Shown piece by piece: positions 2,293 to 21,147 of a stretch of 27,867 nucleotides of DNA. The notes below the pieces were generated by a model. The model made no database searches. It was not told the origin of the DNA and saw nothing but the letters and a program-made list of their open reading frames with translations. This DNA is from a virus (taxonomy: Duplodnaviria > Heunggongvirae > Uroviricota > Caudoviricetes), in the IMG/VR virus record IMGVR_UViG_2526164662_000053, one strand, 5' to 3'. Within the stretch, counting starts at the first letter, position 1, and each line of letters starts with the position of its first letter. The translations under genes were made by a program, and so were the position numbers.

Positions 2293-3875
2293 GTGGTGTT
2301 GTCTCCTCTTCCGGCCTGCGACTCTCCGCTATCTGCTGCTCATACGCCTGCGCTATCCACACCGGACGTGAGAGTCCGGCTTTTTGTCGCTCAGCAGATT
2401 CCCTGACCTGCTGGCGGAAAATGTCCTGATAATCCTCGCCCATCAGCGCCAGCTCTTTCTCATACGTGCTCAGTCCGGCCTCAATGCGCATCACTGATTC
2501 CTGGACTTCCTTGAGCCCGTCAATGGCCATTCTTCCGGCTCCAATCCACTCTGCCCGTGACCAGGCTGATCGCGCCTGATAAAAATCAAAACGTGCCCGT
2601 GGCGGACGAATAATCCCCCGAAGAAGTGCCTCTTCCAGCCAGCAGGAAAACATCTGCGTGGCCAGCCGGGCCGCAATAAATTTTCGTCGTCCCATAAAAT
2701 AGCGCCACGACTCATTGGCGGAGGCGCGGGCACTTGAGTAACTGACCTTGAGTAATCACGGGACGAACTGTTCGTAGGAAACGCCAAGACCGGCGGCGAT
2801 ATACCGCAGCAACGCCTGTTCAAGCGCAGAAAATCCATTGTCTGAATCCTGCGCAGTCTGTAGTTTCAGATCATCACCAGGGAAAAGGTGCGGAATTTTG
2901 ACACCGCCCAGTGTCACGTTATTCGTGTCATACCAGCTGGAGAACTTCTCCAGAATATTAATAAGCGGATTATCTTTCTGCTCCTGTGGCGCGCCGGCGA
3001 TATATTCAAAGGCCTTTTCGGTATCAAGTTCACTTTCAATCGTCGCTGCATACATGGCTTTCACAATGGCCGACTGAAGCTGTGTTGCCTGCAGGGAATC
3101 CAGCATCTTCAGCCGTTCCATGACGCTGTAAAACTGATTAGCCCCACGGGTCTGCCCGTCCTCCACCGGCTCGAAAATATGCAGCATGGCCGGACGCCCG
3201 GTGGGTAGTTCACGCGGTATCCGTTCCCATCGTCCACTACCAGAGACGGAAAATCATCCTCACAGATATGGTACGCAACGGCACGGCCATATCGATCGAC
3301 CTCCACCCCGGCCCGCAGAAAACGGTTCCCTATACCGTGTCCTGGCGTGTCCACCCGTTTCGGACTCACGGCTTTAAAACGCGTACGAAACAGTTGCGTG
3401 CTCTCCGTATCCCAGACCGGCTGCACAAAGATTTCGCCGTTAAACGCATGAACGCCCACACCTTCACGGATAAATTCCGTAAACGTGCGTTTCCCTTCCA
3501 CGTCGATCTCGCCAGACATCCCTTCGGCGTATTCCGACCAGGCCGCCTCCACCTCATCGACAAAACTTTTTGCTGCAGTCTCCCGCATCCCCAGCCAGCG
3601 CCAGTTCGGACGGTAGCTGATCAGGAACATATGCCCGACAATATGATCCTTATGCAGTGCCACCGCATTTGGCCGCTATCCCGTTATTGCGCACCAGATC
3701 ATCTGCACGGGCATTGCCCAGACGCAACGCGGGCAACAGGGCCGCATCGGCACTCTGCGCCGGTGGCAACCACTCCGCCCATTTGCCCGCCAAATCCTGC
3801 ACCGCCCCCGTTGTAGCTGAGGCTCTCCCGAAGCGGAACACCGTTCACATCAATCAGGACAGGCGTTCGTTTCAT
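2282..3875 (-). pseudogene. B: portal protein (lambda gpB-like), interrupted by several frameshifts and an in-frame TGA
   Basis: ATG at 3875 overlaps the W stop (ATGA); portal similarity is split over ORFs 3650..3841, 3109..3663, 2756..3187 and 2282..2695; frame breaks near 3775-3785, 3668-3670 and 3205-3250; TGA at 2756-2758. Confidence 0.75.
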
Positions 3876-7523: not shown

Positions 7524-7988
7524 AAGTGACCTCCGATTATCTACAGACTGCCATCCTGAATTTACCTTCCCTTAATGAAATAACAATAAAAAACAAACCA
7601 CGCAAAAACAATAAAACAACACACAAAAAAAACTAAATAATAAACAAAAATAATCACCTTGTTTTATTATTTTTTGAGGGAGCAATTACTGAACAAAAAA
7701 CGCTGACTATATACTCAAAACCAAACAACTATTCTGCCAATCAGGTATCATGGCAACACACGGAATTACCGTGTTTTTGCCTTCTCTGCCCATACAATAC
7801 GGGCATATACTTCATTCTCTATTGTAATATTTCTATCCATGTGCCCCACTCCATTTACCTGTAAATAATATTCAAAATATTTATCACAGAAATCGTTTTT
7901 GGCCATGAACTGAGCACACTATAAAGTCCGGAACTGACTCTTTGTTAAATTACCTTAACGTTACCAGTAACACCTTCATAACAAAATA

Positions 7989-8456
7989 TCACGGTATACA
8001 CTGGGTACGGATATATTCCTGTGCTCCTTCCAGTTGCTTCTGCATTGCCATCAGCCGTTCTCTGAGGATGAAATAATCCCGTTCAGCGGTGTCTGCCAGT
8101 CGGGGGCCGGTTGCATTATCCACGCCGGAGGTGCCGGTGGCTTCACGCACGGTACCGGAGCAGGTGGCGTTGATCCGCAGGCGCTTACGACCAGCGGCAA
8201 CATCAGCACGCAGAGTTTCATTTTCAGCTCTCGCATCGGCTAATTCCCTCGAGTATCTGGCATCAAGTGCAGCGACATCACGCTGGCGTATCTGCATATC
8301 AGTAATTGTCGCGTTCGCCAGCTCCAGCTCACTGGCTTTTTTATCGCGCTGCTCTTTGTAGATGATGGCGTGATCACGGTAATGATTCAGCCCCAGACTA
8401 AGCGCACCACAGGCCACCAGCAGGACAATGATAACCACGCACAGAACACGGTTCAT
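7989..8456 (-). CDS. Rz: i-spanin (lambda Rz-like)
   Basis: Internal ATG at 8456; MNRVLCVVIIVLLVACG…NHYRDHAIIYKEQRDK…DMQIRQRDVAALD… matches recalled Rz. Confidence 0.85.
   Translation of the reverse strand: MNRVLCVVIIVLLVACGALSLGLNHYRDHAIIYKEQRDKKASELELANATITDMQIRQRDVAALDARYSRELADARAENETLRADVAAGRKRLRINATCSGTVREATGTSGVDNATGPRLADTAERDYFILRERLMAMQKQLEGAQEYIRTQCIP
8051..8236 (-). CDS. Rz1: o-spanin lipoprotein (Rz1-like), embedded in Rz in another frame
   Basis: 61 aa; lipobox LVVSAC followed by proline-rich CVKPPAPPAWIMQPAPDWQTPLNGII as in lambda Rz1. Confidence 0.8.
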   Translation of the reverse strand: MRELKMKLCVLMLPLVVSACGSTPPAPVPCVKPPAPPAWIMQPAPDWQTPLNGIISSSENG

Positions 8457-8457
8457 A

Positions 8458-8571
8458 TCACCACCAACGGATTGCCCAGACCAGAACAGCAATGGCCACA
8501 ATACGAATGGCAAAAGCTGCCGCTCTTGTTAAATCCAGACTGGCTGGCGTCTCCACTTCAATGCCTTTCAT
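8458..8571 (-). CDS. candidate 37-aa single-helix membrane peptide coupled to Rz
   Basis: ATG at 8571 with GAGG about 9 nt upstream; MKGIEVETPASLDLTRAAAFAIRIVAIAVLVWAIRWW; TGA ends 1 nt before the Rz ATG; below the 60-aa cutoff of the ORF track. Confidence 0.3.
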   Translation of the reverse strand: MKGIEVETPASLDLTRAAAFAIRIVAIAVLVWAIRWW

Positions 8572-8670
8572 AATGGACAACCTCAGAAAGAATCTTTTAT
8601 ACTTCCTCACAGGGAAAGTACCTCCCTACCCATAATTTCTCCCTTGCCTTGCTCAAGGTCAGAAAACACA

Positions 8671-8708
8671 AAACCCCGCTTGCTGCCAACAAACGGGGTT
8701 TTTACTTT
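8671..8708. terminator. intrinsic terminator hairpin between endolysin and Rz
   Basis: aaaccccg…cggggttttt stem flanked by A-rich and T-rich runs, so it could act on either strand. Confidence 0.45.
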
Positions 8709-8791
8709 TATTCACTTAGGTTTTACCAGTTTTCAGGATTTCGTGTTATCCACCCGCGTTGGCCAACGTCATTTTTCAGGAAAATATTCTG

Positions 8792-9325
8792 CTATCTGTC
8801 GATGTCCCAGCACGCCAGCGCGCTCTCCTGGTCACGCCGTGAGACCTGACCGTAGCAATTATTTGAACGGATACGGCAGTCTCTGCCACCGTCCTTAATC
8901 CACCAGCGAATCGCCTCACAGGCACCTTTTCGATCGCCTGCATTAATTCGTTTATAAAACGTCGACGGGAAGCACTTACCGGGGCCAATGTTGTACGGAC
9001 AGAATGACGCGATCCCCGCTTTCTGGGGTTCGGTCAGCGGCACCCGGATGTTTTTCTCCACCCATGCCAGCGCCTTGTCACGTTCGATGGCATTAACCCG
9101 GTCGCATTTTTCCTTTGACAGCTTCATGCCAGGAATAACAGGCTTACCATCCACCAGAATGGCACCACGGCAGATGGTCCAGATCCCCGCACCATCACGG
9201 TATGCCGTGGTGTGGTTACCTTCCTTTTCATCCAGAAACTGGTCGAGGATTTCAGGCGCAGAAGCACCTGCACCAATCAGCGCCAGAACGGCAGCCGACA
9301 GGCCGTATTTTATTTTTTCGTGCAT
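8792..9325 (-). CDS. endolysin, T4-lysozyme-like (GH24), with hydrophobic N-terminal segment suggesting SAR type
   Basis: 177 aa; E-x8-D-x5-T arrangement (EKEGNHTTAYRDGAGIWTICRG); N-terminal Ala/Gly-rich stretch YGLSAAVLALIGAGASAP; paired with a pinholin-like holin. Confidence 0.8.
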   Translation of the reverse strand: MHEKIKYGLSAAVLALIGAGASAPEILDQFLDEKEGNHTTAYRDGAGIWTICRGAILVDGKPVIPGMKLSKEKCDRVNAIERDKALAWVEKNIRVPLTEPQKAGIASFCPYNIGPGKCFPSTFYKRINAGDRKGACEAIRWWIKDGGRDCRIRSNNCYGQVSRRDQESALACWDIDR

Positions 9326-9442
9326 GGGGATTTATCGATTTCTAATCCCTTGATATGTTAGGTATATAATCCAACACTCATGGTCGCTCTCATAAACATA
9401 TCCCTTGAGACGCAGCAGATTACAACAAATGAAGCCATATAA

Positions 9443-9757
9443 ATGAACAGTAAAGAAAGTTTGCGCAGAAGATTTTTACAACTAATGACAGAAAACGTTA
9501 AATCAGAGTTACTTCTTCTGATGGCAGATAATAACGAAGCAACAAGCAGCATTCTTGCAGACCCTTACGGTAAGATCTCACATAAAACGCTGGATATTAT
9601 TACCACAACATTAACACCGCTGATGCTTCAACGGCTGAAACATAATATCAACGCATGGGTTAATGAAGAATTAAGTCCTCCCTGCTTATGGGATTCTCGT
9701 TACGCATGTCAGCAAAAAATGCGAATTTTCAACTTACTATCACCAAAGCTCAGGTAG
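9443..9757 (+). CDS. hypothetical protein encoded antisense within the holin-endolysin spacer
   Basis: 104 aa ORF in AT-rich DNA; no clear SD; identity not established. Confidence 0.3.
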   Translation: MNSKESLRRRFLQLMTENVKSELLLLMADNNEATSSILADPYGKISHKTLDIITTTLTPLMLQRLKHNINAWVNEELSPPCLWDSRYACQQKMRIFNLLSPKLR

Positions 9758-10012
9758 CCATAAAATCCTGCCCTTCATGGCATACAGGATTTCAATGGAA
9801 TCACAATGACCAACTCTTGCACAGCTGTATCCCTGACTCCCCGACAACTCAGATTTTCAGTATCTGCTGCTATCTAAAGAGAAAGCGCACAAATGCAAGG
9901 GTCTTTCATCACGTCCTGTTATTGATTGCCTGTGACCTTTTCTTACCTCATGGAACGTTTTTTCAGTTAGAAATATTCATTTTACAACCAGTTCGTATTG
10001 TTTATTCATCGA

Positions 10013-10219
10013 CTACTCTCCCCGCGCCACCTTACGACGGTCCTCTCTGATTTTGAAATACAGGTTAGTCAGATACGTCAGCAGGCCAAACAGCAGACTT
10101 CCCAGCACACCTATTGCCACCCACTGGGACGGAGAGACTTTGTCCAGCAGCTGCAGTAACCAGTATCCCGTCCCCACCGCTGACGTGGTGTATGACACAC
10201 CTGTTGTGATTTTTTCCAT
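10013..10219 (-). CDS. S: holin, phage-21 S21-like (class II / pinholin type)
   Basis: 68 aa; [55 protein letters not shown] matches recalled S21. Confidence 0.8.
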
Positions 10220-10473
10220 CTGATGTATGTCTCCGTCACCGCCGACAGAAAATGAAAGTAAAGAAAAACAAAAAAACCGCCAGTGTCACCCACTGACGGC
10301 CAACTCCGGGAGCCGTGATTATGGCATTCAGGCTCTGCTAAAAATGCCAGATAACATTCCGGCCTCCCCTGATTCAGGTTATAAATGACACAATATCTTG
10401 ACAACACCCGTCACTGTCTGTCAGAAAATATACCGCCAGGCATAAGTATCATGTGAAATCCAACTATCCTTCT

Positions 10474-10512
10474 GAGCCAGCACCTCTCCACCGAAAGTCA
10501 GTGCTGGCTGTT
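10474..10512 (+). terminator. plus-strand intrinsic terminator, antisense to the late operon
   Basis: agccagcac…gtgctggct stem followed by TGTTTTTTT on the plus strand only. Confidence 0.45.
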
Positions 10513-10666
10513 TTTTTCCTTAATAAAGCATCTGTAACTGAAACAATCCGCATATTGATAATATATTGACAGGCATCATTGCTGTCTGTGAAAAATAAGT
10601 CTCTACAAACATATAAGGCCTTTTAGCCAGCGTCTTCTTTCAGGTCAGTCGCTGGCTCTTTTTTTA

Positions 10667-13112: not shown

Positions 13113-13559
13113 GGAGTTTACTCACATCTGACAAAATCAATATAAACAGCCCCTCCGGAGAGGGGCTGGAGAGTGGCGCTATGTGCCATTGCATGGTGCC
13201 GGGTGCCTCCCGGTGAATTCAGTACCAGCACCTGAATCCGCGATTATCCCATATACCTACTCGCTGATTGCCCCTCCGCACAGGGGGATTCACCATGCCA
13301 GTTTCTTTTAACAAACTCCCCGCAAACCAGACAACAGTCAACCGCCTGAATTGTGAAGTATTTAAAAATTTCTCCCGCTAACTGATACCCGGCTAACAGT
13401 CTGGCGTTTTCTTTTTCAGCAACGGGAAAGCAACAACCACCACACCCGCCACCAGCACACCGTCAGCCAGCACTGACATTATCCGGCTGCTGCAATGCCA
13501 TTCACAAAAACAGTAAGCAATCACTTTTTACCGTAACAGGTGATAATCCAGATATGTAT

Positions 13560-14023: not shown

Positions 14024-14100
14024 TGGCGCGCTGTACTGGATTCGAACCAGTGACCGATTGCTTAGAAGGCAATTGCTCTGTCCGGCTGAGCTAACAACGC
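14024..14100 (-). tRNA. tRNA-Arg (anticodon UCU)
   Basis: Reverse complement folds as cloverleaf: 7-bp acceptor stem GCGTTGT/ACAGCGC, anticodon loop CTTCTAA, T-arm GGTTCGAATCC, 3' CCA. Confidence 0.9.
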
Positions 14101-14201
14101 TGAATACCGATAATGGACCGCCATCGGGGACCCGCCCCCCGCACCAACAACCCTGTTATCGTGTCGTCTGCTCTTCCTGATAAGCTAATGGCGGTTTGTG
14201 A

Positions 14202-14277
14202 TGGTGGCCCTTGCTGGATTTGAACCAGCGACCTGGCGATTATGAGTCGCTCGCTCTCACCACTGAGCTAAAGGGCC
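14202..14277 (-). tRNA. tRNA with CAU anticodon, ileX/ileZ-like (tRNA-Ile2; reads as Met by anticodon)
   Basis: Perfect 7-bp acceptor stem GGCCCTT/AAGGGCC, anticodon loop CTCATAA, T-arm GGTTCAAATCC, CCA end; close to recalled E. coli ileX. Confidence 0.9.
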
Positions 14278-18471: not shown

Positions 18472-18624
18472 CTACTTCTTCGGTTCGTAAGCGAGAACAG
18501 CCTTAAACTCAATATTACGTTCCTTTACGGTGAACTCACACAGCGAGTCTCCGACCAGAAGCGTAAATCCCAGTACCGTCAAACACAGCACTATTACTGC
18601 CACAAGGGCATATTTCGTCAGCAT
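18472..18624 (-). CDS. hokE: Hok/Gef-family type I toxin, HokE-like
   Basis: 50 aa [50 protein letters not shown], matching recalled HokE; IS186 end lies 22 bp past the stop. Confidence 0.8.
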
Positions 18625-18769
18625 GTTTATATTGCCTCCATGCGAAGAAGGGACTACCATCCGAGTTGTTGAGGCTCGGAGTGGCAGCCCCAGGATTGAT
18701 AGAAATATCTCCTGGGGCTTCATCTTTCCAGACCTCAGAGTTAACCTGAAACCGGAAAGCTTCAGGCAC
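18536..18769 (-). CDS. candidate mok-like overlapping reading frame for hokE
   Basis: 77-codon ORF in a different frame that starts upstream of hok and stops inside it, as in hok/mok/sok loci; no sequence recognition. Confidence 0.35.
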
Positions 18770-18963
18770 CCGCCGTTATCTTACCCTTCCTCAACAAAAT
18801 ATCTGTTTATTTATACAGTGAATCCTGTTTCGGACTTCTGTCGGCAAAACTCATCATTGCTCTTAAAACGAAATCGCCCGCAGCCATCACTGACCGCGGG
18901 CGAAAGTGTAAAGCAGGTGCCTTACCATCCTGACCTGACAACCGGATATGCGGGGATTGCTCC

Positions 18964-20324: not shown

Positions 20325-20480
20325 TTACTCCTCAGGTTCGTAAGCTGTGAAGACAGCGACCTCCGTCTGGCCGGTTCGGATTCGTACCTCGCAGAGGTCT
20401 TTCCTCGTTACCAGTGCCGTCACTATGACGGTTAAACAGATGACGATCAGGGCGATTAACATCGCCTTTTGCTGCTTCAT
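20325..20480 (-). CDS. hokD: Hok/Gef-family type I toxin, HokD(RelF)-like
   Basis: 51 aa MKQQKAMLIALIVICLTVIVTALVTRKDLCEVRIRTGQTEVAVFTAYEPEE; AAGGAG 9 nt upstream; IS186 end 23 bp past the stop; HokD versus HokC call is from memory. Confidence 0.8.
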   Translation of the reverse strand: MKQQKAMLIALIVICLTVIVTALVTRKDLCEVRIRTGQTEVAVFTAYEPEE

Positions 20481-21147
20481 AGCCTGCTTCTCCTTGCCTT
20501 TCGGCACGTAAGAGGCTAACCTAGATTTGCCGTTCATAGATTGAGCCTCAGATTAATGTTAAGCGTCTTGCAGGACGCGTAATGTTAACTGGGGCTTTTC
20601 TCTATCTGCCTTTGGTGTTCATGCCTGAGACAGATAGCCTCAAGCACCCGCAGCCATTCTACTTAACTCCCGTTACCTCGCCAATATGAAATCAGTCAGA
20701 AAGGCGATCCATAAGAACAACAGCAAGGCAATAAATTGCCATTACAGCAGCAATAGCCAGCGCACATTTGAGAACCAGCACCACAACCTCCTGTATTGGA
20801 CGTACACCAGTCCTGATAAATATGAGGCTGTCTCGTCAGTGATTCAATACAACTATTGGGTATAGTTTCTGTGATTTTGTTCTGTAGAAATGGAACATAA
20901 TAACCTGTCACCACCAGCACTTCTTTAAATACGCCAAGTCCGACGCAAGCTAACCTTCTAGCCCGCTTTGAGCGAAGAACGGACTGAGTAATTCAGGCCG
21001 TTAGCGACACTATGACATCATTAGCAACCAACTAGGAGTTGGTAATAGATGAGTTAATTAATTGATTAAAAACCGACGATTTTACTAGATTACGGGAAGA
21101 AGAAAGGCCGCTGGTACGGCCTCCCAGAGACTAGTCTATTGTTATGC

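Follow-up and report, generated by a model that had tools for sequence, protein, structure and literature searches.

Why should the gene of the endolysin R and that of the spanin Rz, which directly abut or overlap in lambda, DLP12, K-12 Qin and Sakai Sp3, stand 335 nucleotides (nt) apart in the virus record IMGVR_UViG_2526164662_000053, and what does the sequence between them hold? [quoted passage not shown] A first-pass annotation, made from the letters alone, described the gap as a non-coding spacer with a hairpin terminator and a short open reading frame (ORF) that might encode a membrane peptide. All of its coordinates hold (the 335-nt gap, the hairpin, the ORF from ATG 8571 to TGA 8458 and the GAGG ahead of it), and it was right that endolysin and Rz are normally adjacent; because R abuts or overlaps Rz in Qin and Sp3, the gap is a real departure from the lambda-like layout. 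The gene described here is absent from lambda, DLP12, Qin and Sp3. The part of the annotation that does not stand is the term "non-coding spacer", since the gap encodes a gene with a frame-specific signature of selection.

The small open reading frame as a gene

The ORF was found to have two possible starts in one frame, and both forms end 1 nt ahead of the Rz start codon.

8458-8610, minus strand: small membrane-protein gene, probable long form of 50 amino acids, MRKYKRFFLRLSIMKGIEVETPASLDLTRAAAFAIRIVAIAVLVWAIRWW, from GTG 8610 (PHROG 4493; EDL933 annotation)
8458-8571, minus strand: short form of 37 amino acids, from ATG 8571 with GAGG at 8584-8581, to TGA 8460-8458 (RefSeq WP_000675931.1; phage GER2)

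The evidence for a gene comes from comparison with diverged copies in other lysis cassettes, which share 78% nucleotide identity with the window in the ORF. The ratio of non-synonymous to synonymous substitution rates (dN/dS) of the core is 0.03-0.07 in the frame of the ORF, and at least 0.9 in the other two frames. Against one of these copies (L128) about 18 synonymous and 6 non-synonymous differences were counted in 37 codons (Fisher p = 1.5e-9), and the amino-acid changes are I/L/V/A swaps inside the hydrophobic stretch. The ORF is conserved in related lysis cassettes, and the substitution pattern identifies it as a real gene under strong purifying selection. The 451 nt that span it (window 8380-8830) occur with 100% identity in genomes of O103, O145 and O157, and 668 of 5426 complete E. 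coli genomes contain at least 80% of this query.

The 50-residue product matches the profile of PHROG 4493 with E = 1.4e-24, its residues 1-50 lying on positions 1-54 of 56. PHROG 4493, related to phrog_1115 and phrog_3246, comprises small phage proteins with the hydrophobic helix at the C-terminal end and has no assigned function, and the kinship to holins, antiholins or small toxins that the first-pass annotation had considered did not appear, as the family search found PHROG 4493 and no holin, antiholin, toxin or defence family. In existing records the gene is treated unevenly: WP_000675931.1 (hypothetical protein, 37 amino acids) and GER2 annotate the short form, the original EDL933 annotation has 50 amino acids (AAG56189.1, UniProt Q8X4B6, "transmembrane protein"), and most records of Shiga toxin (Stx) phages carry no annotation of it. 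A scan of GTDB species representatives gave two matches, both spurious, and a profile search of 1.84 billion representative proteins recovered 25 clusters only, so the family is either narrow or too short to trace; the tblastn count of type A phages (2 records) is not meaningful, as the low-complexity filter masks the helix. The picture fits a gene already annotated and uncharacterised, which would represent a new sequence family among the small accessory membrane proteins of lysis cassettes.

Two families ending in the same way are distinguished below: type A, to which the window belongs, and type B, which corresponds to PHROG 6632 and encodes a 45-residue protein with a GTG start.

Start codon and protein features

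The frame of the ORF is open upstream as far as GTG 8610. The N-terminal extension pattern xYKRxFLRLSxM is retained in distant family members (34-48% identity), two haplotypes (L174 and L215) have ATG in place of GTG 8610, and the dN/dS of the extension is 0.07-0.2; because of these three observations the full product is probably 50 amino acids from GTG 8610 and not 37. Thus the single-helix peptide of the first-pass annotation survives as a conserved membrane protein, and its proposed length of 37 residues likely does not. At the same time the two in-frame starts are each preceded by a Shine-Dalgarno sequence, the methionine at 8571 is conserved in most relatives with its own GAGG, and short-only natural variants exist, namely 28-residue forms of type A and 32-residue forms of type B with a stop in the extension; for these reasons a second, shorter isoform from ATG 8571 is possible. 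Among the type B copies, those in L005 (Stx2a phage Stx2_14040), L008, L081 and L088 have the stop CGA to TGA in the extension with the frame intact from Met14, and L005 carries a further TGG to TAG stop, which suggests either a short form that is sufficient by itself or decay of the gene in some Stx2 phages.

One segment of the protein exceeds the membrane-helix threshold (residues 30-48, best 19-residue Kyte-Doolittle mean 2.1). The N-terminal flank has a net charge of +4, only WW lies beyond the helix, and AlphaFold2 predicted a single helix with a block-mean predicted local distance difference test (pLDDT) score of 94-95 for residues 31-50. By the positive-inside rule the N-terminus would be cytoplasmic, with the conserved Arg-Trp-Trp (RWW) C-terminal end at the periplasmic face. 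In one distant relative that ends in RWW (P0129 of locus L222) a terminator follows directly and there is no gene to couple to, and therefore the RWW end is not merely a by-product of the Rz ribosome-binding site.

Terminator, leader and the junction with Rz

The sequence upstream of the gene and the last codons of the gene itself contain the following elements.

8661-8712, minus strand: intrinsic-terminator hairpin, stem 8702-8670 between a 5' A-run and a 3' T-run
8642-8658, minus strand: second small hairpin, CCTTG 8658-8654 paired with CAAGG 8646-8642 (RNAalifold consensus)
8607-8643, minus strand: Shine-Dalgarno GGGAG (8643-8639) and 8-codon mini-ORF, ATG 8633 to TGA 8609-8607
8457-8465, minus strand: GGTGGTGAT, the last codons (WW) and stop of the small gene, read as an extended Rz Shine-Dalgarno

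The strong terminator claimed in the first-pass annotation was borne out: the hairpin has 15 pairs, a 3-nt loop and TTTTGTGTTTT after the stem (a U-run in RNA), and is the strongest terminator-like site in 7700-10500, a region with 9 such sites against 2.8 in shuffled sequence. In a comparison of 14 phages 5 of 12 stem pairs have compensatory changes, and the inner stem covaries. The stem has an A-run on its 5' side and a T-run on its 3' side and so resembles a terminator on either strand; it recurs in the predicted folds of both the plus-strand RNA 8610-8716 (z = -2.6) and the sense leader. The second hairpin of 5 bp overlaps the Shine-Dalgarno from its 5' side, has some compensatory pairs (RNAalifold, 11 phages) and is present in the minimum-free-energy fold of the leader. 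For the unit as a whole, double changes preserve the pairing at 9 of 17 pairs.

A covariance model was built from 11 examples; it recovers a single copy in the window (R1 match 8628-8712, 93.5 bits) and three tandem copies in L222, each ahead of a small transmembrane ORF. The order is the same throughout: terminator hairpin, about 12 nt, 5-bp hairpin, Shine-Dalgarno, small transmembrane ORF; and this unit occurs in three lysis cassette types, after capsid genes and in a Pseudomonas phage. From the shared arrangement, the compensatory pairs and the covariance-model copies it can be considered, at the level of sequence, that terminator, leader and gene behave as one evolutionary unit. Rfam searches of the region 8300-9000, both at the gathering threshold and at E <= 10, gave nothing credible.

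Within the leader, the TGA of the mini-ORF overlaps GTG 8610 as GTGA, and the GGGAGG upstream of GTG 8610 is predicted to be sequestered in a 7-bp hairpin within the mini-ORF. The mini-ORF is open throughout the clade of the window and has 4 or 13 codons in the other clade, and its start corresponds in position to that of the type B protein. At the other end of the gene, GGTGGTGAT agrees at 8 of 9 positions with GGAGGTGAT, which is complementary to the 3' end of 16S rRNA. Viral contigs were scanned for the junction CGN-TGG-TGG-TGA-N-ATGAA, which gave 98 loci with Rz downstream, and in these fetched loci TGGTGGTGA-N-ATG stands ahead of Rz. By this complementarity the last codons of the small gene (RWW and stop) form the Rz Shine-Dalgarno, and the geometry as a whole suggests a translation relay from the mini-ORF to the small protein and on to Rz. 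The coupling to Rz proposed in the first-pass annotation is accordingly right as to the stop codon placed 1 nt before the Rz ATG, and too narrow for the family, whose members also accompany other holins and endolysins, stand ahead of a lipoprotein gene or lie outside lysis cassettes altogether.

In none of 33 type A haplotypes does a sense promoter-like site lie between terminator and ORF, and for this reason transcription must pass through the terminator; in lambdoid biology Q-modified polymerase reads through terminators.

Relatives and genomic contexts

Type B is present in H-19B, in Stx1a and Stx2c phages, in Rac-SA53 and in Salmonella SPN3UB, with dN/dS of 0.09-0.2. Its protein resembles that of the window in the slot before Rz, similar size, one transmembrane helix, GTG start, Met14, the RWW end and the 13-codon extension; homology of the two types was examined and is unsupported beyond the last 13 residues (hhalign probability 33%). 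In Sakai Sp10 an antirepressor gene and then a 48-residue transmembrane ORF (PHROG 4906), ending 7 nt before Rz, lie between R and Rz; this protein shares slot, approximate size and single helix with the window protein and differs in having no RWW end. A 641-nt version of the gap contains four small transmembrane ORFs in a row. All families that fill the pre-Rz slot code for a transmembrane helix.

The A and B families are distributed across three cassette types: S21 holin with R21 lysozyme, holin_8 with M15, and holin_8 with GH108. Type A is also found with other holins (PF16931, PF05449) and endolysins (Peptidase_M15_4 or GH108), and in the M15 and GH108 cassettes it directly precedes either Rz or a 60-residue lipoprotein, PHROG 7528. 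In the non-redundant loci with identifiable neighbours the small gene always lies between the endolysin and the next envelope-related gene.

Some loci show further rearrangements at this junction. In L128:3116-3298 and similar loci the PHROG 7528 lipoprotein gene (lipobox LVGC) follows the small gene and no Rz was called; the lipoprotein could be an unrecognised outer-membrane lysis factor. In L131 and L132 (1287-2424) the GH108 endolysin and the small gene are separated by inserted genes for the heat-labile enterotoxin LT-II A and B, and degradation affects the terminator, the GTG start and the lipoprotein gene downstream alike. In L047, L050 and L058 a DNA adenine methyltransferase gene starts at the usual Rz start (TGA-N-ATGAA), and the small protein has W-to-R and A-to-E changes in the helix.

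In Pseudomonas phage YMC11/02/R656 a type B homologue (50% identity) was found with the same terminator and leader (L219:2416-2644). In the L222 locus three units stand in tandem (2925-3654), no two with the same small transmembrane ORF; on one side of them is a lambda-like major capsid gene, on the other a pinholin-like gene with a signal-arrest-release (SAR) endolysin. Small genes flank the pinholin-like gene, and a B-like RWW gene ends 3 nt ahead of the SAR endolysin gene.

Proposed role and alternative explanations

The gap is read here as a compact late-gene cassette, and its small protein as a non-essential inner-membrane accessory lysis factor, which is the explanation preferred, tentatively and with a confidence that falls somewhat short of halfway. 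In this proposal the bidirectional terminator after R would be passed only by Q-modified, termination-resistant RNA polymerase, the conserved leader with its 5-bp hairpin and strong Shine-Dalgarno would come next, and ribosomes would start at the 8-codon mini-ORF, stop at the TGA overlapping GTG 8610 and reinitiate. The 50-residue protein would be translated, possibly together with the 37-residue form from ATG 8571, and the ribosomes would stop 1 nt before the Rz ATG on codons that double as the Rz Shine-Dalgarno. The protein would then have its basic N-terminal part in the cytoplasm, followed by the C-terminal transmembrane segment and a periplasmic RWW, and helix-helix contacts with the holin, the SAR endolysin anchor or the Rz anchor may tune the timing or efficiency of lysis. 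This role is favoured because in enterobacterial prophages the gene keeps a fixed position, with the endolysin gene on one side and the spanin genes on the other, because it is coupled to Rz, and because of the analogues in the same slot and the precedents discussed at the end of this paper.

Several observations speak against an accessory lysis factor. The ORF product was unmatched, with no holin family, in Pfam and NCBIfam (E <= 1), and was likewise unmatched in the PADLOC defence-system models (E <= 1) and in a PDB sequence search, and the small proteins appear in no paper found by accession, peptide string or PHROG identifier. The A/B family does not track any single holin, endolysin or Rz anchor type, hence no specific phage partner is indicated. 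About 7 of the 98 copies are frameshifted or truncated, and because of these broken copies, together with lambda, DLP12, Qin and Sp3, where the gene is missing, it must be dispensable for lysis as such. Distant relatives are located after a lambda-like major capsid gene (L222) and after an SU10-like podovirus capsid gene (L223), and the YMC11/02/R656 copy is placed among small ORFs of the tail-gene region, away from recognisable lysis genes.

These same facts feed the strongest competitor, in which the small gene is a mobile, moron-like membrane-protein gene with a role unrelated to lysis, such as phage exclusion or a late change of the host membrane, and occupies the pre-Rz place only since terminator-bearing late-operon junctions favour insertion and recombination. 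This explanation is judged unlikely, and it stays serious because the family tracks no lysis partner and occurs outside lysis cassettes. The units behind the major capsid genes and in the tail region of YMC11/02/R656, the three tandem units of L222, the absence of co-variation with holin, endolysin or Rz type, and the insertions of Ant, dam and LT-II toxin genes at the R-Rz junction would all be expected of it. It agrees poorly with the fixed position between the endolysin and the next envelope gene in enterobacterial prophages, with the stop codon that overlaps the Rz ribosome-binding site and with the L222 units being inside what looks like a lysis cassette itself. The usual moron has its own promoter upstream and a terminator downstream; here the search for a promoter was negative and the terminator precedes the gene. 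Since no sense promoter was found, the expression in the lysogen that exclusion needs is not expected, and no PADLOC match supports a defence function.

An extended form of the accessory-factor proposal borrows this mobility. The terminator, leader hairpin, Shine-Dalgarno and small transmembrane ORF would together be a mobile regulatory cassette by which small membrane-protein genes are shuffled among late operons in phages of Enterobacteria and Pseudomonas, and its two-start isoforms would be a new class of lysis regulators gating the pinholin, SAR endolysin or spanin step. This is speculative and considered improbable; if true, the textbook phage-21-type lysis cassette of many Shiga-toxin phages would gain a fifth gene.

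A type I toxin-antitoxin-like pair, in which a plus-strand antisense RNA of about 100 nt from around 8610 represses the hydrophobic peptide, is very improbable. It arises from an element on the opposite strand.

8574-8603, plus strand: promoter-like TGGACA-18-TATACT, 10/12 consensus, facing the bidirectional terminator (speculative)

All 33 type A haplotypes carry the element unaltered, every substitution of the block falling outside the hexamers, and between clades the 39 nt that lead up to ATG 8571 share 92% identity, against 78% in the ORF bodies. Synonymous divergence in 8572-8610 is below that of the core (proportion of synonymous differences, pS, 0.25-0.35 vs 0.63-0.71), the terminator is good on both strands, and two hok/sok loci in the window indicate that such modules live in this prophage; the element could mark an antisense RNA of about 100 nt, with the predicted fold z = -2.6. 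On the other hand, the drop in synonymous rate is only suggestive (P = 0.08) and could equally be explained by an internal ribosome-binding site for ATG 8571, two promoter-like sites were counted in the region vs 4.3 from shuffles, and no comparable antisense element is present in type B or the distant relatives. There is no sense promoter for a toxin mRNA and no Rfam match, and the gene is co-oriented with Rz and coupled to it in the late operon. An Hfq-bound prophage small RNA (sRNA) in the R-Rz gap was also sought and rejected: no mapped Sakai Sp3, Sp4 or Sp10 peak lies there (Tree et al. 2014, Table S2), and the sRNA candidates of these prophages are upstream of the holin or downstream of Rz.

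It is also very unlikely that the gene is a cis-acting leader, in which translation alone matters, reloading ribosomes after the terminator for Rz, and the peptide is functionless. The succession of Shine-Dalgarno, mini-ORF, GTGA, ORF and TGA-N-ATG, with last codons that serve as the Rz Shine-Dalgarno, has the geometry of such a relay, and the slot is filled by unrelated sequence families; but the dN/dS of 0.03-0.07 and the conservative I/L/V/A changes are signs of selection on the amino-acid sequence, which is what makes a pure leader unlikely, all slot families encode a transmembrane helix, and the RWW relative of L222 precedes a terminator with nothing to couple to. Finally, an untranslated chance ORF, conceivable from the length of 37 codons and from the missing annotation in most Stx phage records, can practically be dismissed because of the codon-position substitution pattern and the frame-specific purifying selection in two independent families.

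The lysis cassette around the gap

The gene that is preferably read as an accessory lysis factor is surrounded by the following features.

10013-10219, minus strand: holin S, phage-21 type (PF04971 Phage_holin_2_1, E = 1.3e-32)
8792-9325, minus strand: endolysin R, SAR-type lysozyme (PF00959, E = 7.7e-24), stop TAG 8794-8792
8713-8791, minus strand: conserved segment after R, up to the terminator, alignable in type A, B and B' phages, with a CGGATAACAC(G/A)AAATC core
7989-8456, minus strand: Rz, i-spanin (PF03245, E = 8.4e-49), ATG 8456-8454
8051-8236, minus strand: Rz1, o-spanin, embedded in Rz (PF06085, E = 1.7e-21)

The N-terminus of R is weakly hydrophobic (best 19-residue Kyte-Doolittle window 1.67), which is typical of SAR endolysins. 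The segment of about 80 nt between the R stop and the terminator is kept across E. coli and Salmonella phages, and its first part (GCAGAATATT...) is found again behind the lipoprotein gene of L128. The segment may mark a module boundary, or may represent an RNA derived from a 3' untranslated region.

Further upstream, the gap between holin and endolysin (9326-10012) is 687 nt in the window and contains a 104-residue ORF on the opposite strand (9443-9757) without a Pfam match; in a near-identical RefSeq locus this region is 187 nt longer, with a truncated YdfR-family pseudogene. The region from the NanS-p-like esterase to the holin (10220-10666, minus strand) has a terminator-like hairpin (10301-10275) and no Rfam match, and is the place from which prophage anti-sRNAs (AgvB/AsxR, Pas sRNAs) have been reported. 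Elsewhere in the window the Rfam matches at gathering score, all on the minus strand (13138-13327, 14027-14277, 18616-18771 and 20475-20649), are the sRNA STnc100, two tRNAs and the two sok antitoxin RNAs of the hok/sok loci.

Significance and comparison with known systems

The phage-21-type cassette (pinholin, SAR endolysin and Rz/Rz1) is a model of lysis control, and many Shiga-toxin phages release virions and toxin through such cassettes; within it a conserved, strongly selected gene has apparently never been studied. The gene is short and is found in genetically tractable phages (H-19B, Stx phages, lambda-21 hybrids), and the recurring terminator-leader unit hints at how small membrane-protein genes move between phage late operons.

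Among the known systems are holin genes with dual starts. In lambda S107/S105 and phage 21 S71/S68 the starts are 1-3 codons apart, and in P2 the lysA gene lies between the endolysin and spanin genes and encodes a protein with four transmembrane segments. The window gene is similar in encoding a small membrane protein of the lysis cassette, whose two in-frame starts could yield isoforms differing in N-terminal positive charge, and it differs in having starts 13 codons apart and one helix, in contrast to the four segments of LysA. An assignment as holin or antiholin is not supported, as there is no holin family match and no charged hydrophilic C-terminal tail, RWW coming right after the transmembrane segment.

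With the type I toxins (Hok, Ldr, Ibs, ShoB) the protein shares the nature of a short hydrophobic prophage peptide and a possible antisense promoter nearby, whereas the gene is coupled inside a late operon and has neither its own promoter nor an Rfam or Pfam match. T4-type phages have mobile regulatory cassettes in which promoter and stem-loop units flank small ORFs. The likeness there is a conserved regulatory RNA or DNA unit repeated before small shuffled ORFs, and the difference is that the unit of the window consists of a terminator and a translational leader in the late operons of temperate phages, with a role in recombination that may be supposed from its recurrence.

Precedents for an accessory lysis factor are two small membrane proteins, which demonstrate that such factors can decide whether and when lysis occurs. 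Lcc6 of Shewanella phage LambdaSo, a single-pass protein of 65 amino acids, is reported to be required at the pinholin step (bioRxiv 10.1101/2024.01.23.576932). As compared by description, it resembles the window protein in being small and single-pass and in serving a phage with pinholin, SAR endolysin and Rz/Rz1, and differs in its N-terminal transmembrane segment and cytoplasmic tail, its location far from the lysis genes and its being essential for lysis. [quoted passage not shown] It has 99 amino acids, an N-terminal transmembrane segment (N-out) and an acidic cytoplasmic domain, and a releasin of the Mu type was rejected for the window protein, which has no DUF2730 or other Pfam match, a C-terminal transmembrane segment and a basic N-terminal part. 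In its predicted layout, therefore, the window protein is the opposite of the known accessory examples, Mu releasin and Lcc6.

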